NCBI GenBank assembly: GCA_010015805.1
Contig: ML978130.1
Coordinates: forward strand, 124,001 to 188,000
Length of the DNA stretch: 64,000 bases
Source: Rhizodiscina lignyota
Lineage: Eukaryota
Direction of reading: 5' to 3'
The notes beneath the pieces were generated by a model that worked only from the letters and a program-made list of their open reading frames with translations, was not told where the DNA came from and did no database searches. The translations under genes and the position numbers were made by a program. Position 1 is the first letter of the stretch; each line of letters opens with the position of its first letter. This document shows positions 16,742 through 53,074 of the stretch, piece by piece.

Positions 16742-18862
16742 TCAAACAAGCACCACCCGACCACATACTTTCTCGTCAAATAGCTCGCCATACATTGCGC
16801 CGTGGATATAGCAATCGCCGACGAGCTCGAACTCGTTGGCCCTCACTGTCTTGCGCAGCACTAGCGGAACTCTGCATCCCTGAATTAGCCACACTTGGTC
16901 ATCTCTTTCAAGCTTCTTCGGTCCCAGTCCAAGGTAGCCCTTTTCGGTCCAAAACAATCTTCTCAACTTTGTTTCTTGAAGCACACCCAAGAACGCTTGA
17001 TTCTGCTGTTTGTTTGGAATCATTGTGCTCATGGAGCTAATAAACTGGTGTGCCGCGGGAGCCTTGTCAATCTTTGCCTTCCGTAGCAGTCTCTGTGCCC
17101 AACGCTCTTTTCGCCACGCACGGAACGCCTCTAACGCAAACTCCTGTCCTGCTGGCATGAAGTCTATGCATACAGTGCGCATGTATGCAACTTCCCGAGT
17201 TTCGTGAGTGAGTGAATATGAAGTTTGCAAATCGCAGTCGTCGGAACCGAAGACGAGATTGTCCCATGTAACTAACGTGTCCAGCTGATTAGAGACGTCG
17301 CCCAGCCATCCGTACGCGTACTTGTAGAGTTCGCGAAATCCTCGACCCGTTATAAGAAAATTATCGGTCTTTTCTTGGAAGACATCAACTTCCAAGGCGG
17401 CTTCAGGCAAGCTTTCGCCGAAAATTGTAACGCGATCGAGAAAGTATCCACGAAGAACCAAGCGGTTCTTCGGTTCGAAAATTGGTACAGGCACGGTTGA
17501 GTATCCAGACGCGTTGAAAGGTTTGGTGGGGAACTCGTCGTTTCCGTTATCTTCACGGTCATCGAATAGAGAGTCCTCCAACGTTGAGGTTTCGGTCCAG
17601 TCCGGGACCCATGATGGCAGTGAATAGGAAAGTTTTGTCGAGCTGCACGGGACGCTCAGTATATCAAGAGTATCGCAGGTCCTGAGGATCGCTTTGGCCA
17701 GGTCTATGTAAAGAGATTCGGTCGGTGTGCGATAATTCGGTGCCAGATGGAGCTCCTTGATCGGTGTAGTTGTGAGGCCAAACAGAGCATAAACTTTGTC
17801 TCGAGGATCTGTCGCATGGCACACGCGAAAGCTGCACAAGAGTTTGAGGAGTTCTAACTCGGGCGACTCGTCGGTGTCCTGCGCAGCGCCTAAACGGGCG
17901 GAATTGAGTTTGGACAGGGTGAGAAAGACTGTGCTGGTGCCATTACCTCCAACGTGGTATCCGACAACAAATGACGATATCGTGCCAATGAAGAAGTCCT
18001 CCCAGTCCATCTCTTGGCCTCCACAAGTTACGAGCACCTTTTTCGCTAGAGCCACCTCCTGAATTACCCAGACTCGCTCGAACCAGGGAAATCGTAGCAT
18101 CTTCCAGAGGGCCGCATTTTCGTCGTCCGTCGGCAAGACAATTTGCTCATCTACTACAGTATGGTCTCCCTGCCAGAGCAGAGCATTGATATTGAGTGTA
18201 CCATCAGTCAGCTTCGAGCCGACCGTCTCTACCATCCTTCGTAACATCATGAAAGCCTTTTCATCGCCAACAAAACCGTCACCAAGCCAAACAACTGTTC
18301 GTACACCACTCCGATAGATCTTTCCCATAATATTGACTTGCTCCTCGCGCTCCTGAAGGTCCTCTTGGTTGATCGAGATAGCATCGATCCACAGTACCCG
18401 GGGGGAATGAGGCCGACGCAAGTCTCTTAGAGCCGACTTTAAATTTTTCGTGACGTACAGACGTTTGCCATTACAGGTGATTGGTGACTTGGCCGATACA
18501 TCGCCCCAGCAATAGGAAAGAGTCTCATATTCGACGTCTAAAGTGGATACGTCGAAGACTACCTCGAGTGGTTCCCAGTCGCTTCCAGGAAGGATCTGTA
18601 CGAGCCGGACAACGGGTCCATCTAGCCAGGGTAGAGGTTCGTACTGAAGCTCCTCCAAATCGTCGTCTTCGAATTTCGGAACGAGCCATGCGTCCAGGAG
18701 TTGCTTTCGTCTCGTTTCCAATTTGACGAGTGCAGCCAATTCCGGGTTTGAGCTTTGCATCTCTTTCAGGTAGGCTTCGTACATGTCGTCCATGTAGTGC
18801 TGCCATGATGCTGAGGCCTTTTGAGTCAGTCTTGACCATGATGAAGACTTTGCTTGGGCCAT
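16742..18862 (-). CDS. Heterokaryon incompatibility HET domain protein (HET-6-like)
   Basis: VRLVQILPG, YETLSYCWG, LWIDAISINQED..ER..QV..MGKIY, WFERVWVIQEVALA, ATDPRDKVYALFGL, LPSWVPDW, LVGDCYIHGAMYGE; frame is open to 19138, first ATG at 18862. Confidence 0.93.
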   Translation of the reverse strand: MAQAKSSSWSRLTQKASASWQHYMDDMYEAYLKEMQSSNPELAALVKLETRRKQLLDAWLVPKFEDDDLEELQYEPLPWLDGPVVRLVQILPGSDWEPLEVVFDVSTLDVEYETLSYCWGDVSAKSPITCNGKRLYVTKNLKSALRDLRRPHSPRVLWIDAISINQEDLQEREEQVNIMGKIYRSGVRTVVWLGDGFVGDEKAFMMLRRMVETVGSKLTDGTLNINALLWQGDHTVVDEQIVLPTDDENAALWKMLRFPWFERVWVIQEVALAKKVLVTCGGQEMDWEDFFIGTISSFVVGYHVGGNGTSTVFLTLSKLNSARLGAAQDTDESPELELLKLLCSFRVCHATDPRDKVYALFGLTTTPIKELHLAPNYRTPTESLYIDLAKAILRTCDTLDILSVPCSSTKLSYSLPSWVPDWTETSTLEDSLFDDREDNGNDEFPTKPFNASGYSTVPVPIFEPKNRLVLRGYFLDRVTIFGESLPEAALEVDVFQEKTDNFLITGRGFRELYKYAYGWLGDVSNQLDTLVTWDNLVFGSDDCDLQTSYSLTHETREVAYMRTVCIDFMPAGQEFALEAFRAWRKERWAQRLLRKAKIDKAPAAHQFISSMSTMIPNKQQNQAFLGVLQETKLRRLFWTEKGYLGLGPKKLERDDQVWLIQGCRVPLVLRKTVRANEFELVGDCYIHGAMYGELFDEKVCGRVVLV

Positions 18863-21676
18863 ATCGCAAGACGAGTCGCCAATTTGCTGGTAAAAGCAAT
18901 GCCGGTTCGCGCACGAAGCTGTCCTAACAAGGACCTTTCTGCATTGGAATTCGCAAAGGATTCTTGTGGAAAACTGCCCAGCAAATGTCCTGAGAGCTCT
19001 GAAGATAAATAGGAGTAGATCGAGAAGCCAGTTCTGGACTTGGCTCCATTTCAACGATGGCTGCGGTGCCCCCCCCAATCCAACCGCCCGCAACCCGAAC
19101 CCGAGCCCCCTTGCAAAATTGTCGCTTTCCAGAGTCACCCATAGCGCAGTATGGATCCCAACTATTGAAAAGGAGAGAGAAACTGATCTAACGCAAAAGT
19201 GGCGCGTTGGCGCTGAGCCAGGGGCTCAGGAGGATTTCAACCATCGACGTTTGATTTCCGCTCAGCTTTGGCCTTACCTGATAGGGAAATCGGGTCTTAA
19301 GGACGTGCGTGCATATCCCGTTACTTTCACGTGACTCCGATGACAGTGACGTTGATGGAATTTGGAAGATTAAGTGATGTAGCATAGGGCGGGTTTACGG
19401 CTGTCTGGTGTTGGTAATTACTTCAATTATGCGATAACATTTTGAAGTACATGAGCTGTTGTTATTCATGCGTGTGCTCCGTAGCAACAGTCCCGCATGG
19501 GAAATGCTTTAGACCGCGCCGCTGAACAAGACCATAGAAATTCACAATTAACACGTGCTTCATATACGCTAAAACATTTCAACTCACATTGTGTGGCAGT
19601 GGTAGAATGAAATGGTCTCTAGCGAGGAGCAAATCGACAGCTGTATACTGCCGCCCTGCTGACCCAGTAATAACAAGGCCACGAGGATGACCATATACCA
19701 ATTACGAGTTAGGAAGTTAAGTGCATGTGAGAAGATTCTCAACCCCAGAACAAGACGACGTGGTGCAATGTATACAGAAGCTCGGCGTGGAATACGGCGC
19801 TTTAACCCGGGCAAATCGTAAACTTGAACCAATCACATATCAAACAGAATCCGACGATAACCGAATAGGTGGAATTTTCATTTAGCATGGAGTGAATATT
19901 AAATACTGTGTAACGTGGCTCGGTCGTACGATGCACACAGTCAACTGTGCTCTTCATGAGAATAGCAGTGAAAAGATACTCTAGAAAGCAATCAGAATTG
20001 GAATTGAAACAACCCAAACTTGTAGATCGGATAGAAGTGCAAATATATGCGAACAGTCGATGTGCCAGATATGGGTTATTATATTACTCGGCATGTCCCC
20101 GCGACTGTCAAGCGTCGCTGCACTTGCTATCCTTGCGACAACGGAGACGACTGTAAGACTCGAAAAATTACTTATTGCAGTGCTTTTACTCTCTCCGCCA
20201 CGTTGTTCCACTGAATGTCAACTCTCGAGCGTTGTCTGCCCGACTCACTGCTGGAAGTCAGCCGTGCTTCGACGCTCCAGCGTTACATGAGACTCATGGA
20301 CCTCTTATTCGCATCCAGCGGAGGAAAATACACATGGACACCAATGAGGTTACGTTGCTCTCGCTGAACACTGGATTGATGTGCTTTTGACGACGATGCA
20401 GAGGTAAGCTGCTGCAGCGCAACTCAGCAATGGTGGAGATCGGCCAAATTCGCGATCAGCGGCCGTACTTAACCTACCAGAACACGGCATGGAACAGAGG
20501 TGCATTTAAAAGAATTTCGAGGCGAAACTCGGTCGCCGGAACGGTCGATGACCCAACCAGGTGGGCTAACAGGTGGTGACAGCTTCCGCCGCATGCATTG
20601 TTTGCCAGCGCATCAACGCGACGTGCAGGCAAGCTCCGCATTCCAGCCACTGGTCGAGCGCAACGTCAGGCGTTTGAAACCGACCTGCCTGAAGCGCTGC
20701 GTCTGCTTCATGTACCTTTTTCGACTCAACATGCGAGGGGCGAAGAGTGCTCTGCCATGGTCCGTGGGTCTGACGCCTCGCGCTGAGGCCGCAGAAGCGG
20801 TCGCATCTGGCAGATCATCGAGCCTCAGCGAGTGGCTGCTGCCCGTCACGCGAGAGATCTTGCAGATTGGCAGCTGACAGGCGCGGAATCTGCGAGGCTC
20901 GATCCCAAGCGACGCATCTCTGGCGCTGGAGAGTGAACGGAGCAGTGGGAACGCGGAGATGCGGCAGAGCCTGGAGCTCAGCACGCTGCATGGCTAGTCG
21001 CCCATGGGCAGCAGGAGCAACAGAAGAAGCCTTTCGGAGTCGAGGCGGGACCTGCAGGTGGATGAATGCGGTTCTCTTGCATGGAGAAGCGTGGCCTCTC
21101 ACACGCCCAACTGTCAGCGAGCTGTTGCGCATCCTTGCACGAACAGCCAGGCGCGCGCTGCGCTGCTGATTCGCCTTGCCACTGCCTGGGGCTGGCCGTG
21201 ATGTGCTGGCTGCCTGCAAGTCATCCTTTTGGGCGGCATGCGATGTTTTTGCCCGCGTCGAAGCAGAATGGACGGCGGCGCCCATCGCTCTCTTCTTCCC
21301 ATCCGTTCTCACGAGCACAGGGAGCAAGCTGTCTGTGTCTCTCTCGGCGCGCGCGCACTGGTCTGCTATAAGACGAAGATATAAGCCGGGATTTCCCAGC
21401 CTTCCCACTCGCCCTCCAGCTGACTCGAGACTTCGCGCGCGCCAATCAGGTGCCGCGCTCCGCTCTCTATCGATAAGGGCCGCCAGCACATCCACGCCTC
21501 CGCCAGCTCGCTGCTATACATCGCCCTCGAACCCGTCCTGATCGTCTCGAACGCTGCTCGACGATCTGCTCCCTTCAAGCTGCTCGTTTCGACTCCGAGG
21601 CCGCTGAGCATCGCTGCTCGGGATGGCCAGTTGACGGTCACGGACGCCCTCCACAGAGCGTCCAGCATATGGCACA

Positions 21677-24600
21677 ATGAGCCTCAGTCGACCAAGCTCA
21701 CCGGCCGTCGCCGTGTCGAGTCCTCGCTGTACGTCCTTCGATGGTGAACTTTCAGGTATAGCAAGAAATGCTGTAGTGCATTCTCTTGGATAGACTGCCA
21801 TTGCAAATCATTCGAGGCCCATGACAGCGCTAACAGTCGTCTGCAGCTCCATCGCCAACCCTTCCTCAACCTCCGAATGATGCCCAGCCGACACCTCACA
21901 AACATCATGGCGGTCCGGCAGAGTCTCTTCGCCGGTCCACAAGCATAGCACAATCTCTCAAGTCCGATGTGGAAGCATCCGATACCGGCGCACGTCCCAG
22001 GAGGACAGCCGTGTCTGAAGACGAGCATGCGAAGACTTCCAACAGGAGACGCGTCAAATCCTCTACTGGCTATAAACTGCCACGGCTACTCCCGTATGAC
22101 AAGTCTTTCTACTCGGAAGAATCTCTTCCCACCGCAGCCCTCACCACATCTTCCACGACACTGGCAGAACTCGCACACCTGATCCGTCTGCAGGGCTACC
22201 AAGAGAGGAAGAGGTCTCATGCTCGAGTGCGCTTGCATAGATGGCTTGTCTCCAACGCGCTCTCCTCGAGGCTGGTCCACTGCGGAGAGTTGTCCAAACA
22301 TCCTCTGATGGATGCATATCGAGCCGACGACAAGAGGGCCTTTGCCACCCTCTACAACGCAATCCATGACGTCCGCAATTCTTGCGACGCCACGCGACGC
22401 TTTTCGCTTCTTGAGCCTGATTTGGAATTTTCGAAATCACCCACCACCCAAGGTTCTGAAAAGCCGTATTCTGATAAGACGTTTCTGCATGAGATACCCT
22501 CCAAGACTCGAGAAGAGTTGCTTGCGTTTCTTTCTGCTTTACGCACAGATCCTGAATTTCTAGTTCAACGCCTCATATCTCTTACTGGTCCAGAAATTGA
22601 GACGCTTGCAAGCTTTCGTCCTGTCGTGGACACCTTTGCTGTCATGGCCCGTCCTGCAGCAAGAGGTAAGGTTCTGGGAGCCGGTGTAACTCAAAAGCCG
22701 CTATCCGGGCCAAGTTCAGTTGAGCGTCTCTTGTCTTTTCAACGCCATGATCCTTTGTCTGCGTTGTTCTATACTATTTTCGCAACTTCTTCTGGTCCAG
22801 ATTCAACCGAGGATTTGCGCCGGACTGAAGTATGGAGTACTGTCTGTGCCAAGTTGGTGGCCGATCCCAAACCCGGGAGTGAGAGGCTCATGCACTGCGT
22901 ACTTGATGCCTTTGCGGAGATGCGGGAGTGGCCTGGCAAGCAATCTTTGGAGCTCTACCTCATGCAGGTCCTGCAGGATGGCCAATTCATCCTGGAGAGG
23001 AGACAGGAACTGATGTTGCGGAGCAGACTTGAGCCTGATCCACAGGATGCCAAATTTGTTATCCGTCAAGACGACTTTTTCGAAGCGGTCGTTCATCGTT
23101 TGTTTGAAATCATTGACGACGAGCCATCTGCTGGTGGTATTCCAGAAGGCGTATTAGAGATTGGGACCGCAATTAATCGCAAAATCACGGAGAAGAAGCA
23201 TCGAGCAGTCTTGCACCGTTTTATCGTTCATCGTTGGTTTTTCGCAAAGCATTTAACGAACGCAATTGTTTATCCCGAGGTACTTGTGGAATCTTTCCGA
23301 TTTGCTAATTTTCATCATCATAAGCTAACCATCACCAGCACTACGGCATCATGATAGGTTATTACATAAGCGAATCTGCACGTAAGGCGATTTTGGAACC
23401 CATCGCAATTAAGGCTCAAAAGCATGTTCTTGATATGACTTACAACTGGTACGCGTTCATGAATTTCACTGTCCAAACGGTGGCTAATATCCAAAAGGCA
23501 ACAAAACGTCCCTGTGCCACAGGAGATACGTACCCACATTGATAGTGTTCTTGCCCGCTTCAAGCAAAGCCGGAGTTTGGCAAAACCAGTGCTTCTTCCT
23601 GCCAAAGCAATAACATCACCGCGAGAGACTGTTGATGTTCAGCCATTCATTGTTCTTTGTCCGTCAGACATCGTTACTCTCGTTAATGGATTATTCCCTG
23701 AACGCCGGCCCCCTTCAGGCCAGTTCGAGAAAGGCTTTCCGTTCATTCGTGGGGGGTTGGCCTCTGCAGGTTCGTCCATATCTGGGTTATCTGCTCCCTT
23801 CCCTCCAGCGTCTACTCCGGGTGATGGGAGCTCTGTTCTTAGTATGAGCGTGTCTTCGGTAACCAGTGACACAACCTCACGTGCTCCTTTACTTGACGAA
23901 TCTGACAAAGGGGCGTCACAAACATCGCTTGAGCTGGTACGAGGATCTGACCGAGCCAATCGCCCTTCGCCAACAGATGAATACGGTCAACGCTTACGTA
24001 TTGCATGCTCTGAGATGACACGTGTTCTCGGCAGCGAAGCAATGGCTGGAAATTGTCATCCTTGTGCTGAACGTTGGGCAGTGTTGTATGTCTCTCGAGA
24101 TGGCAAACAACTGCATCTCCGAGCTCGAAAGGATTATGAGGAGGATGACGATCCTGAGGATGATACTACCAGTAGCGATAGTGAGGAAGAGGGTGTCGGG
24201 GAAAGAATCGACCTCGCGAATGATTACCACCAGCTGAAACAGGCGATTGCTAAGCTCGTCGAAGAATATGAGATTCCAAAGGAGCTGGCACCCGAGAGCG
24301 AGAGCAAAGAATTCAGCAACCGGACTTCCATACACAGGAGCGAGAAGCTGTCACCAAGGAAGAGGGCAAGAGCTCAAGAAATCCCTGCTCGCGCTCCTTC
24401 CCCTCCTCCTTCAGCCCCTCCTGCAGAATCACAAACGGTGTCGCAGTCTAAAAATCCATACCTCAACGGAACTCAAAGTGTCATCACGAAGCTTCTTGCG
24501 CAAGCCAATCAACAACCTCCTTCCCGACCCGAGGAGCCAACCCGACCACCCCATGCTCGTACCAACAGCGACCCAGAGCAGCCTTCCCAAGCACCAGCGC

Positions 24601-27227
24601 CTGCGCAGAAAAGCAGACTATCACCCCTCGTCACGATGCTAGAGGCAGCTGTTCATCAATGCCAATCCCGGTCTGATTACGTTTCCGCGCAGCTTTACCA
24701 CCGCACGTTGCAACAACTGCGCAACATCTCAGCACCCAGCCTGACACGTAACGGATACGCTCCCCTCCTGAACTATTTCAGTCGTGGGCCGCGGGACTCT
24801 CTTGCGAAATGCGCCAGTGCAATTGAAGAGTTTGAGGCCTGGTTTGTCTGGCTCAAGCAAGCCCAAGAGCGATCCGATACGGTTGTAGAATCTTTAATGG
24901 GAGGCTTGAAGTCGTTCAGAGACAAAATGTGGTACACAACAGATGTCTGCCACAGTGCTGCTTACGAGGAGGCCAAGAATGTTGCAATGGCGCTGCGGAC
25001 CATGGGTCTCCCTCCCAAATCACAAGACTCCAAACAACAGCAAGCCAAGTCAAAGATTAACAAGACAACATCTAGCACATTCTTGCTCAAGCAAGAGGGA
25101 CAAGTCTTGGAGTTGATGGCCGCGTCAAACGACACGGCTGGACCGAATAAGCTTACCGATGAACAAAGCGAAAGAACCGCCAAATGGCTGTTGCAGTACG
25201 GCATTGAGAATTTCTGCAAGGGCGAAGAACGAATCCACCGGTTCTGCTTAGAGGTCGATCAGTGTGTCAACAAGCTTGTGGGAGACGGAATACTCGACGG
25301 ACCGGTCCTGTGGTCCAGCGAGCTATACCGCCGTGACAAGGACATCTTAGACAGCGGTCGAGAAAAGGGCGACTTGCTCCTAACTGGAATCGGATCTCTC
25401 AGTATCGCTGGTGAGGATGATGTGAAGCCGCAATCAAGGGCGCTGGATTTTGCAGCTCGGCCTAGCATGACTAATCTTCGCTCTGTAGCCGCACGCAACC
25501 CATCTCAGCAGAGCTTCGAGTCCGGAAAGTGGAGCTCTGGGAAGCCAACCGACTTGTTGGACTCCCAAGACTATTTTGGGACCTTGAGTCCAGTGCTGGC
25601 CATCGACTCAAGTGTGACTTTCTGGTCGCCTTATCAGGGCCAGACACCAACGCAATCTCTCAGCGCCGTCACCTCACCGACCATGCGACCTCGTACGAGC
25701 TCTTCGGCAAGGAGCTCAGTGATCATCCCTCCGGCCAACAAGAATAGCGATGACAAGAAGCGATTCCTCCTAGACTTGAAGCAGACATTGACCGGACTGC
25801 TTCTGAGCGATCTCGGAAATGTAGTCTTCAACAATGGTTGTGAGACTGACGCTTGGTTCTCTGGAGAGCTTGGGCAAGAGTGCATGTCTCGGAAAGAAGC
25901 TGATGATCGGCGACGTAAACGTATTGCTCGGAAGAAGAGTATGAAGGGTCTGAAGAGCGCCAAGGCAGCTGCAGAACGAGACCACGGAGAGAGCGCTGGA
26001 TCTGGAGTGGAGCCATCCACTGCTGAACTTTCGGCTTCTACCTCCAGTGATGCGACTGCTCGGAAGTCGGGTCTGACTGGTGCAAAGAAGCCTGTGCTTG
26101 AGTTTCCGTACAGCAGTGCATTCCAACGACTGCTGCATAAGTTTACCACCAATCCTAACCCGTTCTCTAAACTCCACGCACTCTATGAGTTAGAGCTTCT
26201 CATAGTCGCATCCCTGTCGACAAAGTCAAACAATCGCAATTACAGCAGCGGACTTTCTCGCCTTCCACCTGTACCGCAGAGCCCGACGCTAGGCGCCGTT
26301 CCAGAACTCAGCAACAGAGAAAGACAAACCAGTGTCCCAGTACAGCAGGCTCAGAACTTGGAAGACGTTATCGCCAATGTTGCAGAGAGACGAAGTGCCA
26401 GCATGGGCGGACACCAAGCAAATCAGGCACGCCAGAGCTCTAATCCAACGTCTCCAAGAGCTCGACCGGCTGACTCTGGGACAATGTCACTTAAGCCAGG
26501 ATCCACATCAGCTGCGCCAAGCACTGACATGATTGTTGAAGTCCTTCAAGGTCTATTCCGCGATGCTGAGATCCGGCCAAAGACACTCTTCAGGGACCTG
26601 CAGTACATTGCATCGTTTGTACCTGGGCAAATGCTTGATCGCACTCCGCGTGGCAAAGCATTCTGGGACGCAGGGCTCGCGGCCCTCGGTCTGAAGCAAG
26701 ATGTCTGTCGCGTGATGATTGAAATTGCGGACGACATTGTTGCTCTCAACACGGAAAGTCGCACCGGCCATGCTTCCACCTCTCCTCCTAAAGCGGTGGA
26801 GGATAGCGTGGCGGCTCCTTCAGGTACGGAGTCAACAGCAGTTGTGGAGGCGGTCAAGCCAAAGAAGGAATCCTCTTATGAGGCTCGCCTTGCGCAATAC
26901 TCCATGGCCGACGCCGCGAAGATGCTCATCATCACTGCCAAGGAGGGAGATGCGGTTGCGGAGCGTGAGCTGGCGATCTTCTACCTCACTCATCCAGATC
27001 TCCTCCCACGAACTCTGTTGCCATTGACAAAACCGAAGGATGTCTTTAAGGCTGAGTTGATTGCGCAACGAGAACGTGACCGGAAGAAAGGCGAGCAGGT
27101 GCTTGACCGTGCCGATCCGATGACCATGTGCGTTGCACACCACTGGATGGAATGCAGTAAGAAAGGTGGAGATCAGCTTGCGACGAAGTATTTGCGTGCA
27201 AGGGATGAGATTGAGAAGATACCTTAG
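21677..27227 (+). CDS. Large (~1800 aa) conserved fungal protein, possibly RasGAP-like N-terminus and VPS9-like C-terminus
   Basis: Exon 1 MSLSRPSSP (21677), intron ~21756-21846 joins in frame to ORF 21969-23354, short introns ~23280-23338 and ~23449-23497, then ORF to 27227; domain guess from FLSALRTDPEFLVQRL and RPKTLFRDLQYIASFVP..GKAFW. Confidence 0.75.
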
Positions 27228-28662: not shown

Positions 28663-31114
28663 ATGGACGTTTTCATGGGAGACCCGGGTACGACAGCATC
28701 CCTTACACATGAAGACCACGACGATTCCTTTATGGATATTGCCACATCCGATAACCTACCAGAATGGGATACATCGTGGACTGATGGATATGTTTCCCCG
28801 GACTTGGAATGGGCAACGAATGTGAGTACATTTAATGGCTATGCAAAATGTATCTACGAAATATCTTGGAATACAAAATTAACCTCATTCAGTCTCAAGG
28901 AAGTTTAGAGCCAATCGTAGGGATGACGAGAAATGCCGCATTTGCGGATTTCAGTGGCCATCACCATGCTTCGTATTCCGTGACCGACCTTCCGGTCGAC
29001 TGGGATATTTTCTTTGAGGGGCCATTTCATCGGCGAGAAGCTACTAAGGTGGCTGATTCAGGTGAACACATGCTACGGCCCTTGTTAAACATTTCCCATG
29101 AGAAAGGACAACAGCTTGGGATACTTAGAGAGCATTTCTCAATGCACTCGCACGGAGGAACATTGGAACGGCAACCTTTCAAACCAACCTTAGATTTCGC
29201 ACCCCCGCTGAAGGAAGAGCATTGTCCTGTGCCATCGGTTGTGCATCAGCACATCTCTAGCATGCTAAATCCTATTACCAGCAGTGCTAACATGCTTTCT
29301 CCGACCTCGAATGAACTCCAGTCCGGGCTCAGTGCTTCGCAAAAGGACGAAGTATTTTTCAACAAGCCTGCGGTCAGTAGCCCACCCATACGTCAGTCTA
29401 AGAAACTATCTATGCGGAGGCGGACCTCCGAACGACCTCCTGCAAAATCATTCCTCAACACTAGAGGATGCCCTCGGCATCTGCGCGAGCAACAAATACC
29501 AGGCTATCGATGTTTTGATCAGTGGAATGTGTCCCCTACAGTGACAGCGCCCTTGAAGCGGCGTCGGATGACGACGACGCAGAGAGATCGTACGCGAGGA
29601 GTGAAGAAGAAAGGTCCTTGTTTGCGCTGCCGATTGTACAACCTCAGCGTGAGTATTGGAAATGCATTCATGTTTTGAAAGATACGATACTGACCAGCTT
29701 AATTTGCAGTGCTCTGTGGGTAGGCCGTGTTCAACGTGTGCGGAACTAATCGCACACACAGACAGGAGCCGTAACTTACAATGGGCGGAATGCATCTCCT
29801 CATCTCTGGAAGACGTGAATATCTTTACACAGTGTGAGTGAAGATTGTTGCATTATCATAGTATTTGAATAACTAACGCAGGCGATTCAAGGTCTTACTA
29901 TTGCTGGAGAAGTCCAAGTGTCCGAGACTGTGCCCCTTTGCGGGGATGATCAGGTTTTACGTGATTGCATGCCATTACTGCGCTGTCTGGTCGAACAAAA
30001 TAGCTGGTGGAGTCCGAATTTATCGGTAATCTTTGATGGGCCTCTACGTCAGCATTTGGCATTGAATCCATACCTTGTGCTCGCGGACGACAAGCTCTTC
30101 TTCGTGATGGAGAAAAGCTTCTTCTCACACGAAGCAAAGTCCGTCAACGTATCAAGCATTTGTTACATTTCGAAAGGACCGTTCACGATTACGGAGGAAT
30201 TGGCAAAGCATTACGAAGCTTCCGGTGCTGCCGCGCGCCTTCGAGGCCTGAAGACTCTTTGGAGGTCATGGTGTGCGCATATCGGCTTCGTGGCTATTCA
30301 AAAGGCACTCAGACGGCGAACCCTCCAGCGACTCTCCAGATCACACCGGATCAGATTATTGGTCTGCCTCATCAGCCTGTTAAAGACTGTTCACGAGCTA
30401 AAGTCTGATCTCGGGAATCGATGGGCCTTCATAAATCCGCTGACAGCTAAGTTCTTGTCACCTTATCAGCAAAGGTTTGAAAGCATGCGAGCTCATCTTG
30501 TCAAGATGCTATCATATTACGCTCGCTATCTCGCTTCTCAATCCTTTTCATCCGAGTCTCCAATCCACAACTGCTTCGTAGGTTCGAACGCTGGAATGTC
30601 GGTATCTTTTTCGATCTTCTCCGCATTAGACAAGGAAATAGGTCGACTCCTAGAAGATGAGAACAGGGCTTTGTCAAAAGAAGCGTACCATGCAGCAAAT
30701 TTTGCGACGCTGAAGATTATTTTTGCCGATACAACACCACAATACGATATGCCAGGTATGAGGGACCCCTCAGTGTCGGCAGGACATCAGCGCTCACAAG
30801 AGGACTTTACTCATCTAGAGTATAGCCATCAAGTGGAGAGATTGTCCATCGCACTCGCAGGATGCTCCCTTGATGACACTGCCAAAGAAGAGCCACTTCC
30901 GCTGTACGAGACCTTAAAATATTGCGATGGTAAGATAGCTCCTGCATGTAAGATCCTCGCACCGACTTCGCAAGACCAACGCTCCAACATATCAACTACG
31001 TATGACGCGATCAGCAACGATCAGTGTTTGAATAGCACAACCGCACAGTCCATGGGCGCCGTTGAAAAGGTCATACCTGGAATATTATCTTGGGTCAAGG
31101 CGAACGCATCATGA
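28663..31114 (+). CDS. Putative transcription factor with a central atypical Zn(II)2Cys6-like cluster
   Basis: Basic region KRRRMT..RGVKKKGP then CLRCRLYNLS|CSVGRPCSTC..QWAEC across intron 29649-~29709; other introns ~28822-28891 and ~29834-29891; start codon uncertain (28253 possible). Confidence 0.65.
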
Positions 31115-31530
31115 CACGACAGCACAGCATTTTAAGCGAATCGGTGCAGATAATAAACGGAATCGCATTTGACTCAATAAAGACGTCCCAGGGTCGATCA
31201 GCAGAGACACGAAGCTTGGCCAACTGGTTAGTGCAGGGAGCACACAGCGTGTGGATGGTGAATTGTAGGCGATTGAGCCCACTTTACTATCCGACATCAT
31301 GAGTACACATACTTCGACCGAGTCCATACGATAACGAGCGTCTGATATATGCTCTTGCCCCATATCCATGCAGACATTGATAGCTTTGATTGGTACACTA
31401 GACGAATCGACTAAGGATTTGAGCCCCATACTACCGTGCGGCATCAATCGACTCTGAACAAGTTTTAGCAATGCTATGTGATATCGAGTACTGGTGGCCT
31501 AGAACTTACGCTACTGGATGGCTCTTGCAA

Positions 31531-31887
31531 CTACCAGTCGGTCTGACCGCGCCTCCAGTCCGTTTGGCCGCGCTTCTCTTCCACTTCACGCTTCCAATCT
31601 GTCTGTCCTCGCTTCTCATCCTCCACTTCACGCCTCCAGTCAGTCTGGCCACGTCTCCAATCTGTCTGGCCTCGTTTCCAGTCTGTCTGACCTCGCTTCA
31701 CATCTGTCTCAGGATTGCGCTTCCAGTCTGTTTGACCACGCTCAACCAGCTCGGCAGCATGGTTATTAAAGCTCGGAAATTCGACTTTCCTTGTGCCCAT
31801 AGAGAGAGAGTCAAGCTCTGACACTGGGACTCCGTTGGCTGCAGTAACGAAAAATGCCACGACCACAGAAGCGATGATGAACCGCAT
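31531..31887 (-). CDS. Kex2-processed repeat protein (KEP): secreted precursor of 7 x GQTDW peptide
   Basis: Hydrophobic signal peptide MRFIIASVVVAFFVTAANG, pro-region ending LVER, seven GQTDW cores separated by KR/RR, acidic spacers NPETDV, EVEDE, EVEE; last core ends at the stop codon. Confidence 0.92.
   Translation of the reverse strand: MRFIIASVVVAFFVTAANGVPVSELDSLSMGTRKVEFPSFNNHAAELVERGQTDWKRNPETDVKRGQTDWKRGQTDWRRGQTDWRREVEDEKRGQTDWKREVEEKRGQTDWRRGQTDW
31534..31737 (-). repeat. Coding tandem repeat, seven 15-nt units GGN CAR ACN GAY TGG
   Basis: Units: GGTCAAACAGACTGG, GGTCAGACAGACTGG, GGCCAGACAGATTGG, GGCCAGACTGACTGG, GGACAGACAGATTGG, GGCCAAACGGACTGG, GGTCAGACCGACTGG. Confidence 0.95.
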
Positions 31888-32616
31888 CTTGAATTTGTAT
31901 TAATCAACAGTGGCGGTGAGCTTGGCAATTGAGGAATTAAGTTGAACGATAGAACCCGAGAAGAATAGAGCTGTGAGAAAAGTCTTTGTTCCGCGGCCTG
32001 TGAAGAGCGCAACCTCAACCTCATATAGTTTTCCAACTCTAAGATCTGAGTCTCCTTTTACTTCAAACTTTCATGTTTTCTAGTGTGTGTAATCAAGTTG
32101 TCCATTTCCCAAGGAGCTTATCGCAAGACTGAGTAATATGATTATTCTCTTTTCCATCAGGATCGATCAACCCAACACAAAGCCCTGTCGTTTTATATCT
32201 GATGCCAGGAAATCATGCAGTCTGATCTCTCATCGGATCGGGGTGCTACCACCGAGGGGTCTTCCGCAGCAGAACCGTTGGTCATGAATTGAATAGTGGA
32301 GATAAAGGTAGCTTTTTGACTATCGCATTCGCGTGTCGGGTGTCTTTCATGAGTGTGGAGTTATGGAGCTTTATCCACTCATCCTTACAGATCCATTTGC
32401 GGCTCGAATGGGTATTAGTGGATCCGAAGGATTAAGTCTGATAATACAAATATACTGTCGCGTCTCATAGCAAGGAGTTTCATCAGGAGGAAGGTAAAAA
32501 AACGGCTGGCTTAATCGGCTCCACCTGAATCCAAATATTCTAGACGTGAACCAACATAATCGATCTAAAAATACGGTCTATTTGCTTTCAGCGCAGTTCA
32601 GTCGAGCGGCCTCGTA

Positions 32617-33621
32617 TCAATAATCTGGTTTGCGAGCGGATCCGACACTCTCACCCTTTGCCAACCTTCCCCGGTTCAGGTCAAAGTTGTCCTTTGGCGC
32701 TTCGTGCTCCACGCTCTTCCACATCTCATCAATAAGCTGCACACTCTTCTCGCTCAGCGGCCCCTTCTTGATCTGTTCGAGCGTCTCCCGCAGCTGAGCT
32801 GGACTGGTCGAGCCGATGATGATGCCATCGCCAAATTCGTTCTTCAGCGCGGAACTGCATGCAACCCAGCGATTTGCCAGCTCCGCCTTGGAACATCCTT
32901 CGTTCTCAGCGATGTTTTCCCATTTCTCAAGAGCAGCGATCATTGATGGCTTCATGTAGAGGCCGGAATACAACTCGCTCAAGCCGATGGCAGTATTAAA
33001 GCGGCCAGCGCCTTGTAGCACTTGGTCCTTCGTTTTGGTAAGAAAACCCCCGCCCAATGGGCTGTAACCATAGAATGACATATTGAATTCTCTAAGCATC
33101 GGAAGCAAATCCGTCTCGATGTGGCGCGCAATCGCACTGTATGTGCCCTGGTAGACGCTCGGAAGGACGTAGCCGTGTTGTTTGCAATGATCATATACCT
33201 CTCGGACTTCCTCCGGAGTGTGATTTGAAACACCGAAGCGCTTGAATACGCCTTCCTGGTAGAGTTGATTGACAACTTTCAATGATGCATCCAACGGGAC
33301 GGAGGCGTCGGGTGCGTGGAAGTACATGACCTCTATTTGCTTTGTGTTGAGCTTCTGTAGAGATTCTTTCGCTGATTCTACCATGGCACCTGCTTCGAGC
33401 GAACCCGGTGTCCATCCGCCAGGCCATTTTGTGTCGATGGCGAATCGTGATGCTGCGTTCTCTCTGCCGAGAATCTCCTCGCTCTTGCCGTACAGCTGAG
33501 CGGTGTCGATCGTGCCAACTCCGTACTCTTGGAGAATTTTGAACCTTTCTTGCACAATCTCCGTAGACGTGTCTTTCAGAAAGGCTCCACCGCCGCCCAT
33601 AATGATCTTAATGTGAGACAT
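32617..33621 (-). CDS. Aldo-keto reductase, AKR7 / aflatoxin B1 aldehyde reductase-like
   Basis: IDTAQLYGKSE, IDTK, YFHAPD, FKRFGVSN, PSVYQGTYSAIAR, YSPLGGGFL; intronless. Confidence 0.92.
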   Translation of the reverse strand: MSHIKIIMGGGGAFLKDTSTEIVQERFKILQEYGVGTIDTAQLYGKSEEILGRENAASRFAIDTKWPGGWTPGSLEAGAMVESAKESLQKLNTKQIEVMYFHAPDASVPLDASLKVVNQLYQEGVFKRFGVSNHTPEEVREVYDHCKQHGYVLPSVYQGTYSAIARHIETDLLPMLREFNMSFYGYSPLGGGFLTKTKDQVLQGAGRFNTAIGLSELYSGLYMKPSMIAALEKWENIAENEGCSKAELANRWVACSSALKNEFGDGIIIGSTSPAQLRETLEQIKKGPLSEKSVQLIDEMWKSVEHEAPKDNFDLNRGRLAKGESVGSARKPDY

Positions 33622-35007
33622 GCTGTTGGTGTGGTTAAGCGACGATAGCAAACGGGGCGGAAGGATTCAGTGCCTGCGATACAACCAGACGCTGTTGGAT
33701 GAATACAAAAGTCGACTGACTGGTGCTGGGATGTTCACTCGCTCTCTTAACTTTCGGGATCTTATTTTCAGTCTGCTGAAGAAAATTCGGAGCAAGCGAC
33801 ATTGCCCGTTCGGGAGTCACGTAGCCGTCGGGCGTGTCGAAATGCGGAAACATATGCTCCGACCGTCGGAGCGGGACATAGTATCTACCTAACCTCCATG
33901 ATGCACCCGGTCCTATTTATTCAGTGAGTTCAAGCTATTTTACGAAAGAAAAAGTATAGTTCTCTGAAGAGTGGACAAGATGAACGGTGTTTCACCTCCA
34001 AAGATCGCGCCCGTCGTATCATGGAATTCTTGCAGTGGAGGCCCGATGAAAGCCCGGATATTAAGTCATCTAACACACTACGGAGCACCAGCGATATGAT
34101 ATTGAAATCATTTAAGGGGGCAATATTGAGACCTCTTTCTCTTTCACTCGGATATATGCTTGGTGGCTCAAGTAGGATGCCACCTTCAAACAATCGTGGC
34201 CTTTGCGAGAAGCCTCAAAATTCTGGTACTAGTGAGTTTTCCAGGACAGAGTCTGAGATGCAGCTACGCGACAAAATGGGTTTGATTATACGTGGAGTCT
34301 GCTTGTTCATTTCCTCTGACTTGGACAATTTCGTATATGCTCTTCTCATAGCTTCTTCATTGTGGATTTTGTCACTTTCTGTTCTTGGACGAACGTACCG
34401 CACACAGAACCATTTCCGGCTTTAGTTTCCATATATCTTTGTGTCTCATCATTCTAGCCGCTGCTGCACTATCGTTACTCAGACATACAATAGCCTACTC
34501 GTGGTGCTTCACTCATTTTAGCGACTTCTCACAGTCCACGCGAGTCATGCATCATCTGCTAATAACTCCGAGATCACGCAAATGTATCAAGCTCCTGCAT
34601 ATTTCGTACTCAGTGGCGATCCGCTGCTGTATAAGGGTAGATGAGACTAATGTTAATTCTAGGATCACGCTAATCACTACTGTACTCAATAGGGCAGCAA
34701 AAGGTGAAGGTTCAGGCCATTGAGCAGCGAGGATAACCACCCCCTTGACCCTCTGCCATAAACCCTTAATCAGGTTGTCAAAGGTTTGTATTCTCGTCGA
34801 ATACAATCACAAGAACATATCGCAGAACTTCTAAGCAATGTCTTGATTACCTTGAAGAGTAAGAAACCCTTATCCTGAAGCATTACATACCGATTCACTC
34901 ACCCAATTACCCCGTCGCAGCCAGGCTCGGAACCACCTCCTTCTCAACTCCCCGAGGATTAGCATTTCCGCAATACCGACAAATTATCGGGCTGATGATT
35001 CTCGCCA

Positions 35008-37780: not shown

Positions 37781-40700
37781 ATGGCACCAGCAGCACCAGC
37801 GCTTCCTATACGATTTCCCTGTTGGTGTAAAGCTGTATATTCTTGGGGTGGGGAGGTGAGTGCTGCATGATAAACTAGGCAGTTCTTATACTAATGGATA
37901 CTGCAATCCAGACCAAACGAGACCTCGGATTCATCGAAGGCGATCTGATAGAATGTCTAAATGCAGGAGATGGATCTTGGTGGATGGGACGTCTCAAGAG
38001 AGACAGGCGCATGGTCGGACTGTTTCCTTCGAACTTCGTCGAAGTCCTACCTAATTACCGACCGACGAGTCCGATGCCTCCAGCGCGATCGGGTGGAGGA
38101 AGCATTTCGCGCGCAGCAAGTCCAAATCCACAGCCTCCGAAAGAAAAGTCGAAGAGTGTCTTCAGAAAACCATTTCAGGCATACGCTGCTGCTGGAAGTC
38201 CAAATCCTGAAGCAGCCCGTCGGGAGAGCTTGCAGCGAGGTGGAAGTACGCTGAGCACACCCACGGGGAGCGTCTCTCGTCACAAACCATACTCCTCCAT
38301 GAAACGCTCATCAGATCAGAGAGCATCTAATGACAGTTTCCCAAAATCACCTTTAATTCCGTCGCGACAGGGCAGCAATCTTTCGTCGTTCCGCGCCGTG
38401 TCACCGGCCCCTCCACGGCCAATATCTCGCGCCGTATCACCGGCTCCGCCACGACCAAGCTCTCGCGCGCCATCCCCAAATCCATACGCGCAGAACACTA
38501 TACAGTCTCGCGCTCCTTCTCCCCTTCCTGCTGCCTACGCAGATCCCGATTTCCATATGCGCGCTCCGTCTCCTGCTGCCTTTCCTGACGTTGGATCGCC
38601 TCCTCCGCCTGCGCCTCCACCACATCGCGTCGCGTATCAACCAAGCCGAGCTCCATCTCCACAACCTTTCCATGATGACGGATATGCCGAGAGTTACGCG
38701 CCACGTACTCCAGACCCAGTTTCGCCAGGCCGTAGCAACTGTACTCCTTCACCGCTTACACATGCTATGAACGATGTCATGTCCAGTCTGCAAGACATGA
38801 CTGTAGCTGGCCAGAGGACGCCTCCAGGGGAGGAGGGGGAAGAAGAAGACGAAGAAGAAGAGCCTCAGGGAATATGGAGCCCAGAAGCATTTGACAAGAT
38901 ATATGCATCTTCAGCAAAGAAGGCAAGGCCAGCGACAAGTGTAGGGTTCGGGATGAAACATCAAGACTCTGGCTATGGCAGTGTAGACGATCTAGAAGGA
39001 GATACGGGGCCACCACAATTGAGCAACTACGTGCAGCGCATGGAAAGCAGATTGCGGCAAATGCAACAGCAGCAGGAAGAAGAGGAGGAAGAAATGGCTC
39101 CACCTCCACCACGAAAGAACTCTCCTTATGAACCCAGACACCGTGCAAACTCATCCGTCGGGAATCACGCACCCGAACCACGACCACAATCTCGTAATAA
39201 ACTCCGCTCTCGAAAATCGGCATACGAGCTTGGCCGAGCAGCTCTAAATCGCACATTCACAAATAAATCATCTTCGACGAACGCAACAAACTCAACAAAC
39301 GCGACGAACAGTACCCAGCGGAGCCTCATGTCAGGTGCCTCTGCTACAGCGTTCAGCGCGACATCTGCTGGAAGTCTTGCGCGTCGCAAATTCGGATTCG
39401 GTGATAATGATAGTGAAGCATCCGGCGGCGGTAAGAGCAAGTCGAGGCCTCTAAGTGCGATGAACTGGCGCGATACCAATGCTTCTACTCTTGGGCTTGG
39501 TGTATTAAACGGGCACGCAGAACAGAATTCGAGTGCATCAGGGATATCGTACCACTCATCCCATGATTCCTCAAGAGCAGGTGCAGCGAGCGTTGCTGGC
39601 TTCTCATCAGGTGCTGCATACAGTGCAGAGAGCGGTCCTGGAATTCTTGGTGGCCTGTCCGCGCCGACACCCAAAAAGAGGGGCTTCTTCAAGAAACTCG
39701 TCGACACCGCAAAGACAGGCGCAGCTAGCGCTCGCAGCACCATTTCTTCAGCGTCTGGTCCTGGCAGTTTGAGCAGGCCGCAAAGTCGAGCGCAGAGTGC
39801 AATGGGAAAGTCAAGCGTGCTGCCGAATGGTATAACAGCTATCGCTGGCGGTACTGCGGTGCGACCTGGGTCCTCTTCTACTGGGGGCGATGCAGCAAGA
39901 GATATGGGCCTCGGCGGCGGCATGGACTGGGTGCAAGTCAGGCGAGATGTCAATCGCAGCAACACGGTATCCCGAAATGAACGTGCCGAGCGTCTCGAGC
40001 GAGCTCAGATGATGGAACAGCCTGCTCTTGCGCCGGTGGACTTGCTTGAGGCAGATGCCGAAGGCGACGAAGGCCTCGATGGGTTGGCCATATCTGATCC
40101 GACCGATTTCATAACTAGCTGCAATCTGCAACTCGTGGATAAGAGTGCTAGATTCATCGCCAATTTACCGCCGACCATCAACGTTGCTGCTTTGGCTCAA
40201 GGATACGTTTGCCGTCCTTATCGTAGCGACGTTCAACGACTTCGTGCAATCTTCACTTGGGTGAGCGAACGGATCGCGTGGGAAGAGGACTTTGAGCTTC
40301 CAAGTGTTGTTGATACGAGAAGAATTATTCAAACGAAACGAGGATGCTCACAAGAGATTGCTGCGCTTGTTGCGGAAATGTGCGACGCCGTGGGCCTGTG
40401 TGCGGAAGTTGTTCGAGGGTATCTGAAGACGCCAGGCGAAGAGCTTGCAGAAAGTCTCGAGAATGGATTCAGTCGCCCGAACCACTGGTGGAATGCTGTG
40501 ATTGTGGACGGAGAGTGGCGCATCATGGATGCGGCACTTGCAAGCCCAACAAATGCAAAGCGAGGACTGTACTCATCCTGTCCTGGAACGCAAGCAGAAG
40601 GATGGTACTTCCTTACTCGGCCAATGGAGGCATGCTATACGCATATCCCATACCACGATGAGCAGCAACACATTGTTCCATCCATGGAAAAGGATGTGTT

Positions 40701-41698
40701 ATTGACGCTACCCGCAACTTGTCCGCCGTACTTCAAACATGGCCTCCGATTGATTGATTTTGACACAAGTGGTCTGTTCCTAGAGAATCTTGAGATGGTC
40801 CAAGTGCAAGTAGAGGCACCAGAAGACGTGGAGTGTGTAGCGGAGATTGAGGTTAGAGAGTTTGCAAGGGATGTCGACGGCGACTTCTTTGAAAGTGGAG
40901 AGATGGTCAAACGACCTGCATTGTGTCAAGCTGAGTGGTTTGGTGGGAGAAAGAGATGGATGGTGAAAGGTGTATTACCAGGTGATGAGGGGAGAGGAGT
41001 GCTGAAAATATATGGGGGGAAAAGAGGATTGATGGTAAGTCCAAGGCATACACCTCAGCATTAGCCTCGCAGAAACATTACTGACGTGTTCTCAGCATTC
41101 GATCAAGTCCAATCCCCATCCCCTTGTTCTTGCTCTCCCTCTCGCACATACTGGTAACAACCCACCTTACAATTTCTTCACTCGCCATCCAACTCCGCAC
41201 GCCCAACGACATGATCTCTATGTTGCTCAACCACAATGTGGGCGCCTGGCCATGAATAATACCTTTGTCTTCACGATACGTCAGCATCCATCTAGCCTTT
41301 CAGGTACACCCGCATTAGCATCCGGTGGCTTTGGCGTCCCTCGGCCAGCATCCGCCATGGGTAATTCGATTATCCGACCAACCAGCGCAATGAGCATGGC
41401 AAGCGTAAGCGTGTCAGGCAGCGCGTACTCGAACCCAAGCGCTGTGTCAAATTCCTCCGCCGGAAGTGGATTCGGTAGTCAGAAGCCAGCGAAGCTCGCA
41501 ATTCAAAGTCCGAGTGGAAAGATCCTGCGGGTTACGAGGAAGAATGATGCTAATGTGGGCTCTGGAAGAGAAGCCGAAGGAGACGGCTCCACTTGGGAGA
41601 CGATCATAAAAGTTGGAGAACGGGGGATATGGAGAGGTCTTGTACTCGCAGATCGGAGTGCTAGATGGTGCGTTTTTGGCGAATGGGAATGTTTCTGA
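37781..41698 (+). CDS. CYK3: Cytokinesis protein Cyk3 (SH3 plus transglutaminase-like domain)
   Basis: FPCWCKAVYSWGGE|TKRDLGFIEGDLIECLNAGDGSWW..GLFPSNFV SH3; Pro-rich linker; LRAIFTWVSE, VRGYLK, NHWWNAVIVDGEWRIMD; introns ~37856-37911 and ~41035-41095. Confidence 0.9.
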
Positions 41699-51225: not shown

Positions 51226-53074
51226 TCACGCGCCTTCGTTGTTGGGACGGATAGCATCAGGGACGCTGCTGAACTGCTTCTTCGCTCTCCTGTTGGAACT
51301 CAAGATCGCAGTCAGGCCCCTCGGCTCGAAGAAACTACCACCCTTCTCCAAACTCACTACCCATTCCCAGGATGTCAGGAAACTCATCATTACACCAGCA
51401 ATTCCGAGGTAGAGGTCCATAGAGAGATCCTTCTTTATCGGAACGGTAAGGATCACAACGACATAGACGATTCGACCGCTCAGCCTTACGTATCTGTTGT
51501 TGACGCGGAGAGTGCCTGGCGGGTCCAAGGATTTGTCCAACAGAGCGAGACACGTCATGGAGATGAGGATGATCGACAAGGATACTGACATCGTCCACAT
51601 TGAGGAATATATGTAGTCCCTGAGATCCTCTGCAGGTACCTTCTCATCGTTCTGATCGACATTCTCTGGAAGCTGTGCGTGATTGCGGAGCATGAACATG
51701 ACAGAGGATGCCAGCGTGAGGAACGACGAGAACAAGGGGATGTGAAACCTGTGTGCATTAGTAATGCCGACAATGTGGTGGATTGGAGGAACGTACGAAA
51801 CCCATAGCAACACCCGCCAGCCTTTCCGACGCACAGCAGGGATGTAATACTTGCTTTGGTCGCGGTTGAAGTACAGAAACGAGATGATGAAGTAGATGTT
51901 CAGCGACCAAACGCTCACGGCCGCGGTTCCAGTGATCCCAACCCCCAACGGACCACGACTAATAAGCTGTAGCACGCCTTCGCCAACCGCGAGAATGAAA
52001 AAGCTCGCGAATCTGGACTGGAAGTGGCGGGGATCGAGTGCTTTACGGTACTGGTTCGGTGTAAGGCGATTGGCGACTTTGGTGTCAAGGGCGACCGGAA
52101 CGAAGTATTCCCACACCAAGGCGCAAAGTATTGGGCCGAGAGCTTTGTTACCTTTAAGTTCCATGCCTGCAATCCACAGACCGACAGCTGGGAGCATGAG
52201 AACGGTGTGGAAGACGCAAACCCATCGCAGCCAGGGGATGAAGATGGCGTAGATGGCCTCCATGGCTGCGAAGCTCGCACGGATAAAAAGATAGAGTATA
52301 ATGACATAGTGCTTATACTTCTCGATATCCTCGGGGAGATAGGCGAGCTGGTTCCCATAGAAGACGGACAGCACCAGAATCCAGAAGATGAACAGACGTT
52401 GGAGCACGTCGTCCATGTAGTAATTTGACATGAATTCCCGTAAGATGTTCCATATCCTCCATGACGCTGTGAAGGCAATGATAAAGACGCCAACGGCCAA
52501 GCCTTGGCTCTGCTCAGGGTCGAAGAAGAGGGCGGAATACACTTCGGAGAGGTTGCTGATGATTCCAACCCAAATCAGATCAATGAAGAGGTCGACGCGT
52601 TCGCGAGACTTTGCGATACCTTCTGCATTCCCAGGGTCGTGGTGGTGGTGATGGTGGGATTCCTCGCTGTCCTCCCGAGATAAGTCTGACAGCTCTGGTC
52701 GTGCACTGCGTCGAAAGGCCATCTCTTCATCGCGAACAACATTGCTTATGACTTGGTCATGGTACGTGTATTGGAGAGCTCGCGGACGCGAGACAACGAA
52801 TCTCCGAGCGATACCACGCACTTCAACCTGGGGAGAGTCAATTAAGAGAAGCGACAATGACGGTTTTCACTATGCTCACATGTTCCAATTCCTCTTCGGA
52901 GACCTCGCGATGCAGTTGATTTTTTCGATGCCCATGGTGCCCTTTTCGTTCCTTGACGTCAGGGTCCTTTTCGGTGTCGGTAGAAGTCAGCTGGACGCCG
53001 CTACTAGTTGGCTCGATGGGCGCCAACAGTACTGGCGAGAGAGACTGGTCTGGCGAGGACTCAGGCTCTGGCAT
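51226..53074 (-). CDS. Low temperature requirement A (LtrA) family membrane protein
   Basis: RFVVSRPRALQY, DLFIDLIWVGIISNL, YYMDDVLQRLF, RFASFFILAVGEGV; many TM helices; introns ~52828-52878 and ~51750-51794. Confidence 0.85.

Follow-up and report, generated by a model that had tools for sequence, protein, structure and literature searches.

In fungi, secreted precursors known as KEPs have been defined as proteins with a signal peptide and three or more repeats that are separated by KEX2 sites (Le Marquer et al. 2019, PMC6339444). A later survey catalogued 7878 KEPs, about five per fungal genome, of which 2560 were stand-alone precursors without homologues (Umemura 2020, PMC7329392). Entry into that catalogue demands three or more tandem repeats, each 8 aa or longer, between Kex2 sites, so that precursors of pentapeptides are systematically missed by it. 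Genes for DUF3328 proteins were found to accompany 22% of the KEP genes at a mean distance of 3.09 genes, and Tyr provides the ring closure in the known cyclised products (PMC7329392). Almost no KEP has a known function; the type carrying DW[K/R]R repeats belongs to the small number for which a phenotype has been reported, that of the MiSSP8 knock-down.

MiSSP8 of the basidiomycete Laccaria bicolor is a secreted protein of 50 aa in its mature form with four C-terminal DWRR motifs (Pellegrin et al. 2019, bioRxiv 10.1101/218131). A search in that work for four successive occurrences of DW[K/R]-x(2,20) gave 38 proteins in 23 proteomes (32 saprotrophic, 5 ectomycorrhizal, and 1 arbuscular); 34 of the 38 had a signal peptide, and their N-termini were described as lacking mutual similarity. 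The yeast KEX2 protease cut MiSSP8 in vitro at DWRR to produce DSDWRR and DSDWR, and MiSSP8 RNAi lines formed neither a mantle nor a Hartig net. The same authors found none of the predicted peptides in vivo despite repeated attempts, so that proof of the release of short DW peptides by a living fungus is still missing for the type member. In Basidiomycota, an XSDW motif was found to be conserved (PMC6339444), and MS of Lentinula, Pleurotus, and Coprinopsis revealed KEP peptides with the C-terminal sequence -ADW or -SW (PMC9769878). The linear peptides among them were SGTGEASAADW, (M/L)SGVAADW, QYKAPSW, and GPPAPSW, and the peptides were either linear or modified to pyro-Glu only. Secreted precursors of very short DW-ending peptides that are cut at K/R-R have thus already been described. 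Here we compare with them a precursor encoded by the dothideomycete ascomycete Rhizodiscina lignyota, which contains seven copies of GQTDW.

Structure of the GQTDW precursor

The sequence analyzed was a 64-kb stretch of R. lignyota DNA, referred to below as the window. On its minus strand, an uninterrupted open reading frame of 357 nt at positions 31531–31887 consisted of 118 codons in a single exon and a TAG stop codon at 31531–31533, and the initiating ATG had an A at position -3. The translated sequence had the layout MRFIIASVVVAFFVTAANG / VPVSELDSLSMGTRKVEFPSFNNHAAELVER / GQTDW-KR-NPETDV-KR-GQTDW-KR-GQTDW-RR-GQTDW-RR-EVEDE-KR-GQTDW-KR-EVEE-KR-GQTDW-RR-GQTDW-stop. A preliminary description of this DNA had listed seven cores, the spacers NPETDV, EVEDE, and EVEE, a pro-region ending in LVER, and a last core lying at the stop codon, all of which were present in the translation. 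One DNA sequencing run covering positions 30000–34000 gave a 71-kb contig with 0 differences; this contig is possibly the source of the window itself and is thus not independent.

Residues 1–19 (MRFIIASVVVAFFVTAANG; 31831–31887, minus strand) were predicted by inspection to form a signal peptide, which had an n-region MR with Arg2, a hydrophobic core of 15 residues, and A-N-G at positions -3 to -1, after which the cut would probably occur. Kyte-Doolittle means over 9 residues were 2.5–3.0 across residues 3–9, and both this hydropathy and the small residues at -3 and -1 agree with the signal peptide predicted in the preliminary description. The pro-region of 31 residues (residues 20–50; 31738–31830, minus strand) ended with LVER and contained one RK at residues 33–34.

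The seven GQTDW cores and three acidic spacers followed on the same strand and occupied residues 51–118. Core 1 (residues 51–55; 31723–31737) had a single Arg (ER) before it and KR after it, and the spacer NPETDV (residues 58–63; 31699–31716), with KR on both sides, separated it from core 2 (residues 66–70; 31678–31692), which likewise had KR on both sides. Core 3 (residues 73–77; 31657–31671) was placed between KR and RR, and core 4 (residues 80–84; 31636–31650) between two RR pairs. The spacer EVEDE (residues 87–91; 31615–31629), preceded by RR and followed by KR, was located before core 5 (residues 94–98; 31594–31608), which had KR on both sides, and the spacer EVEE (residues 101–104; 31576–31587), also with KR on both sides, before core 6 (residues 107–111; 31555–31569), which had KR before and RR after it. 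Core 7 (residues 114–118; 31534–31548) was preceded by RR and was followed immediately by the stop codon. In total, nine KR or RR sites were distributed over residues 56–113. Because core 1 was preceded by a single Arg, canonical sites were present on all sides that need a cut for six of the copies and not for the remaining one.

Selection on the pentapeptide and the cleavage sites

The seven cores were encoded by seven distinct 15-nt strings. They varied at all four synonymous third positions (Gly GGT/GGC/GGA, Gln CAA/CAG, Thr ACA/ACT/ACG/ACC, and Asp GAC/GAT), and the other 11 positions were invariant. At least seven substitutions were required among the cores, every one of which was synonymous. 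Since 8 of the 45 single-base changes possible in a core are synonymous, seven synonymous changes out of seven have a probability of P ~5.6e-6 if equal mutation rates are assumed. In the nine basic pairs, P1 was always Arg and P2 always Lys or Arg, while their codons varied. The spacers, unlike the pentapeptide and the dibasic sites, varied in both length and sequence. The degenerate core pattern GGNCARACNGAYTGG had 7 matches in the window, all of them inside the precursor ORF, whereas 0.01 were expected by chance and 7 were reached in 0 of 100 shuffles. No other KEP-like repeat was found among the ORFs of the window.

Tandem Repeats Finder detected a 21-nt period in this region, as a tandem DNA repeat that is open in one frame by chance would also give. 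However, the copies were 69–84% alike as DNA and 100% alike as peptide, all of the core differences were synonymous with the probability given above, and the frame began with a proper ATG that has A at -3, had a start resembling a signal peptide, and ended in a stop codon right after the last unit. We therefore regard it as extremely improbable that this frame is not a gene. Identical units were obtained in the precursor frame only, and the other five frames gave variable peptides or stops. The synonymous nature of the core differences, the variability of the other frames, and the DNA matches of 69–84% indicated that the repeat is old and has been kept identical at the peptide level, which excludes recent slippage. 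Both the pentapeptide and the cleavage sites are under selection. The preliminary description had proposed selection on the peptide from cores differing at synonymous positions only, and the count of substitutions bears this out. Selection of this kind points to the small peptide as the functional product and not to a folded protein.

Alternatively, the functional unit could be the whole protein or large fragments of it, namely a secreted, disordered, and highly charged repeat protein that acts at the wall or between hyphae in a repellent- or adhesin-like manner, with dibasic sites cut partly or not at all. The mature part of the precursor contained 21 K+R and 21 D+E in 99 residues and was predicted to be disordered, the Atlas model being poorly ordered (pTM 0.23, pLDDT 0.59), as is expected for a precursor. 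In Ustilago, the Kex2-cut repeat protein Rep1 has a role in the wall (cited in bioRxiv 10.1101/218131 and PMC7329392), and the failure to find MiSSP8 peptides in vivo would also fit an intact protein. On the other hand, every dibasic site and the exact pentapeptide have been kept by selection in the R. lignyota precursor while the spacers differ, and its last unit ends at the stop codon, exactly where trimming by Kex1 would end the others. In addition, MiSSP8 was reported to bind no wall sugars, and its RNAi lines to be without a wall phenotype (bioRxiv 10.1101/218131). Taken with the selection on the pentapeptide, these points make an intact functional protein unlikely.

Comparison with MiSSP8 and the KEP class

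All three features of the KEP definition of Le Marquer et al. were found in the precursor: a predicted signal peptide, seven repeated units, and nine KR/RR sites, where KR, RR, and KK are the sites counted. This layout is in accordance with the Kex2-processed repeat architecture that the preliminary description had proposed from the sequence. When the published regular expression of the MiSSP8 class was run on the precursor, it matched, with 6 DW[KR]R units and a C-terminal W. The repeats were C-terminal (residues 51–118), the N-terminus was non-conserved, and a secretion signal was predicted, as in the MiSSP8 class. In the catalogue of Umemura, on the other hand, a precursor of this kind would find no place, since its cores of 5 aa are shorter than 8 aa. 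GQTDW and related strings were absent from three supplementary files of PMC7329392 and two of PMC6339444, which are possibly incomplete, and no mention of GQTDW was found in the literature.

Like MiSSP8, the precursor is small and has a signal peptide, an N-terminal part that is not conserved, and repeats at the C-terminus that each end in D-W-[K/R]-R; the predicted products of both are very short and end in DW (DSDW in MiSSP8 and GQTDW in the precursor). MiSSP8 has four repeats with a core of 4 aa and ends in DSDVD, whereas the precursor has seven repeats with a core of 5 aa that begins with Gly, and it ends in a core. The precursor also differs from MiSSP8 in its acidic spacers with KR sites of their own and in its ascomycete host. 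Outside the repeats, MiSSP8 and the precursor have no sequence similarity.

On these grounds, we consider it probable that the protein of R. lignyota, a dothideomycete, is a stand-alone KEP of the MiSSP8-like (DW[K/R]R)n type, which would be cut by Kex2 and trimmed by Kex1 to give linear GQTDW. Its assignment to the class, as judged from the sequence, rests on a motif of four residues, two of which are the cleavage site itself. When the N-terminal 50 residues of the precursor were compared with those of 14 DW[K/R]R relatives, no similarity was detected (all E >= 0.3). Because the likeness is confined to this four-residue motif and the N-terminal 50 residues resemble those of no relative, the resemblance to the basidiomycete proteins may be due to convergence and not to common descent. 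The preliminary description had put the locus forward as a candidate new peptide signal or RiPP. Secreted DW[K/R]R repeats are an already described class, and in this respect the proposal was not supported as it stood; what remained new, among the proteins and papers searched, was the GQTDW core together with its occurrence in an ascomycete.

Relatives of the precursor in protein and metagenome collections

A word-indexed search (5.8 billion proteins, lengths 64–207 aa) gave 628 candidates, and the only one that matched was the identical 118-aa protein of the precursor itself. An exhaustive phmmer search of 1.84 billion representatives at E <= 0.001 gave 36 matches, all confined to the repeat region, and the precursor's own protein alone was below 1e-30. 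More than half of the 35 non-self matches (22) had no DW[KR] at all and were rejected as unrelated low-complexity repeats. An alignment-based search provided eight further proteins as well as organism names, giving a total set of 44 proteins (P0001–P0044, with the query as P0001). At least three DW[KR]R units were present in 14 of the 44, the query counted, and the MiSSP8 pattern was matched by 11, one of which, P0032, had DW[KR] but not DW[KR]R.

The top non-self match, P0002 (E 1.9e-13), had no W and no dibasic sites and was set aside as a compositional similarity. This protein of 132 aa with a signal peptide contained about nine GQ[NST]DF/Y units, including GQTDF, which were separated by N-R and not by K-R. 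No other protein with a GQTDW core was found in the word-indexed, phmmer, and metagenome scans; a single WRRGQTDW in a metagenome locus (L001) belonged to an unrelated ORF of 176 aa and was dismissed as a chance occurrence. The core GQTDW is thus new, with no match in the other proteins found or in the literature.

The closest matches with DW cores were KEPs of Agaricomycetes (P0008, P0014, P0030, P0037, P0038, P0003, P0006, P0024, and P0026), with E values from 6e-13 to 4e-4 in the repeat region only. Their core sequences differed from that of the precursor, and many had a single Arg before the core. The cores of the relatives were GNSDW (P0003 and P0006), GSPDW (P0008, P0030, and P0038), GGPDW (P0014), GDPDW (P0037), and YSPDW (P0040), as well as EPADW, FSADW, and VFRSADW (P0023, P0024, and P0026). 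Exact pentapeptides between dibasic sites were found in P0008 and P0038 (GSPDW) and in P0037 (GDPDW). P0030 contained one GGTDW unit and, like the precursor, terminated in a core. The -AADW peptides detected by MS (SGVAADW and SGTGEASAADW; PMC9769878) are 7–11 aa long, some with STE13 dipeptides, and in this they are unlike the 5-aa GQTDW.

Ten of the 11 relatives with organism names were basidiomycetes, from Stygiomarasmius, Dendrothele (two proteins), Crassisporium (two proteins), Hypsizygus, Cytidiella, Pleurotus, Amanita, and Dentipellis; the lineage was looked up for four of the named species. The sole named ascomycete relative was P0044 of Westerdykella ornata, which had only three PDWKR units. 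The ascomycete host of the GQTDW precursor is therefore unusual among the relatives found here. With an ascomycete member of the DW[K/R]R type, either this type of peptide is older than the Agaricomycetes or it has arisen twice.

P0044 was a secreted protein of 208 aa with a Cys-rich N-terminal domain, DG[SA]PDWKRE units, and a Cys-containing tail. Since this architecture is unlike that of the precursor, DW[KR]R units also occur joined to a folded domain. Another relative, P0043 from a Dentipellis sp., was a KEP with three CTLGYACGDW cores, each of which had two Cys and DW before KR, and it is possible that P0043 represents a disulfide-looped variant of the DW class.

A far-reaching idea would be that the G-x-x-D-W peptides (GQTDW and the mushroom peptides GSPDW, GDPDW, GNSDW, and GGTDW) are one ancient hormone family across ascomycetes and basidiomycetes, with a conserved receptor and a function in controlling hyphal aggregation and multicellular structures. 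The MiSSP8 knock-down phenotype hints at such control of hyphal aggregation and of the building of multicellular structures. The search with the GQTDW query favours cores that begin with Gly among its matches, so that the shared Gly is not independent evidence. We consider a single ancient family quite improbable. If it did exist, the precursor gene of R. lignyota would be the first ascomycete handle on the signal.

Proposed processing and product

By analogy with the systems described above, the following processing is proposed for the stand-alone KEP. The N-terminal signal peptide would direct the 118-aa precursor into the ER, and a Kex2-type protease of the Golgi would then cut after the nine KR/RR sites and probably also after the single Arg of LVER. 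Cuts after a single Arg were observed among the KEPs analyzed by MS as well (PMC9769878). A Kex1-type carboxypeptidase would subsequently trim the trailing basic residues. The set of secreted peptides would consist of six or seven linear GQTDW molecules, the spacers NPETDV, EVEDE, and EVEE, and the 31-aa pro-peptide. The last core ends at the stop codon, where trimming would end the internal copies, and this is consistent with GQTDW being the predicted product of Kex2 and Kex1, as the preliminary description had suggested. The linearity of GQTDW is likewise suggested by analogy with the related peptides.

The calculated [M+H]+ of GQTDW was 606.2518 for the linear and 588.2412 for the cyclic form, and the masses given earlier (about 606.25 and 588.24) were thereby reproduced. 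Because an identical core is encoded by seven diverged DNA copies and flanked by canonical sites, the precursor offers a clean substrate for the MS detection of a free DW peptide. If GQTDW acts like MiSSP8, it may have an extracellular role in hyphal aggregation, in fruiting-body development, or in the interaction with other organisms. No phenotype resulted from six KEP knock-outs in C. cinerea (PMC9769878), and a developmental role should therefore not be assumed for the GQTDW precursor.

Comparison with alpha-pheromone precursors

Alpha-type pheromone precursors have the same layout as the GQTDW precursor, which could then encode a mating pheromone that is unusually short and degenerate. In an Atlas feature search, the MF_alpha cluster ranked second with a score of 0.83, below the meaningful level; all Atlas matches for the precursor were below 0.9 and are leads only. 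The sequence G-Q-x-x-W would resemble the Cys-containing pheromones of filamentous ascomycetes in their C-terminal half. No Pfam family, MF_alpha and MF_alpha_N included, matched the precursor at E <= 0.01; the MF_alpha and MF_alpha_N models mainly describe yeast precursors. The precursors of ascomycete alpha-type pheromones share with the GQTDW precursor the secretory route, the Kex2/Kex1 logic, and linear unmodified peptides, but they differ in having cores of 9–24 aa, class-specific motifs, and STE13 dipeptides. The types known from Dothideomycetes are characterized by PYG[L/M]P[I/V]G or by two conserved Cys, usually with a STE13 signature (PMC6339444).

In contrast to these pheromones, the core of the precursor has 5 aa, contains no Cys, and shows no PYG[L/M]P[I/V]G. 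No XA or XP dipeptide of the STE13 type was found after the sites, and each core begins with G-Q right after the basic residues; the only X-P following a Kex2 site was the N-P that opens one spacer (NPETDV). The preliminary description had likewise noted that the core is shorter than alpha-type pheromones, lacks their Cys/GxP pattern, and has no XA/XP dipeptides beside it. We consider such a pheromone very unlikely here.

Gene neighborhood and possible modification of the peptide

Dikaritins such as ustiloxin, phomopsin, and asperipin are also derived from precursors that have a signal peptide and short repeated cores with Kex2 sites between them. GQTDW might accordingly be released and then cyclised or otherwise modified, for example via Trp, Asp, or the N-terminal Gly, by enzymes encoded elsewhere, in a dikaritin-like or an undescribed route. 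Besides the architecture shared with ustiloxin-type precursors (PMC7329392), post-translational modification was offered by the MiSSP8 authors as one reason why the peptides went undetected (bioRxiv 10.1101/218131), and the invariant Gly1 and Trp5 would suit ring closure.

Dikaritins, however, require a nearby DUF3328/UstYa gene and usually a Tyr in the core. All stop-to-stop ORFs in the 64-kb window with a length of 65 aa or more, 423 in number (148 + 148 + 127), were scanned with Pfam, and none of the 423 matched DUF3328/UstYa, tyrosinase, P450, methyltransferase, or peptidase families, although exons that are short could have been missed. The precursor itself had 0 Tyr and 0 Cys, as against the known dikaritin rings that are closed through Tyr (PMC7329392), and the related -ADW peptides were found to be linear (PMC9769878). 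A clustered dikaritin RiPP, like an alpha-pheromone, is unlikely because the tailoring families were absent from the 423 ORFs and the precursor lacked Tyr and Cys. The RiPP alternative raised in the preliminary description thus received no support within the window, and modification of GQTDW by enzymes encoded elsewhere appears rather unlikely.

The gene adjacent to that of the precursor (32617–33663, minus strand) encoded an aldo-keto reductase. In addition to this protein, the neighbors recognized by Pfam in the window included a ferric reductase, a HET-domain protein, a sugar transporter, a CYK3-like SH3/transglutaminase protein, a Zn2Cys6 factor, SRP54, and Rrp15. Two frames of 280 and 413 aa on the plus strand (28836–29675 and 29873–31111), oriented tail-to-tail with the precursor gene, had no Pfam match. 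Farther away on the plus strand, the open frames 21834–23351 and 23463–27224, which are 506 and 1254 aa long and had no Pfam match, may represent one large gene with an intron; they adjoined the part of the window with the highest GC content (0.577 at 20–22 kb). A Sulfotransfer_4 domain extended across two overlapping frames at 5505–5997 (plus strand), where there could be an intron or a frameshift; these frames were 25 kb from the precursor and gave no sign of a link to it. The HET (heterokaryon incompatibility) domain (E 8e-31) was located in a frame of 827 aa at 16745–19225 on the minus strand. The CYK3-like cytokinesis gene at 37879–41695 (plus strand) consisted of two frames, likely separated by an intron, with an SH3 domain, a transglutaminase core, and the C-terminal Ig-like domain of CYK3. 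On the minus strand at 51229–52866, a frame of 546 aa matched the family LtrA (low temperature requirement A; E 5e-18).
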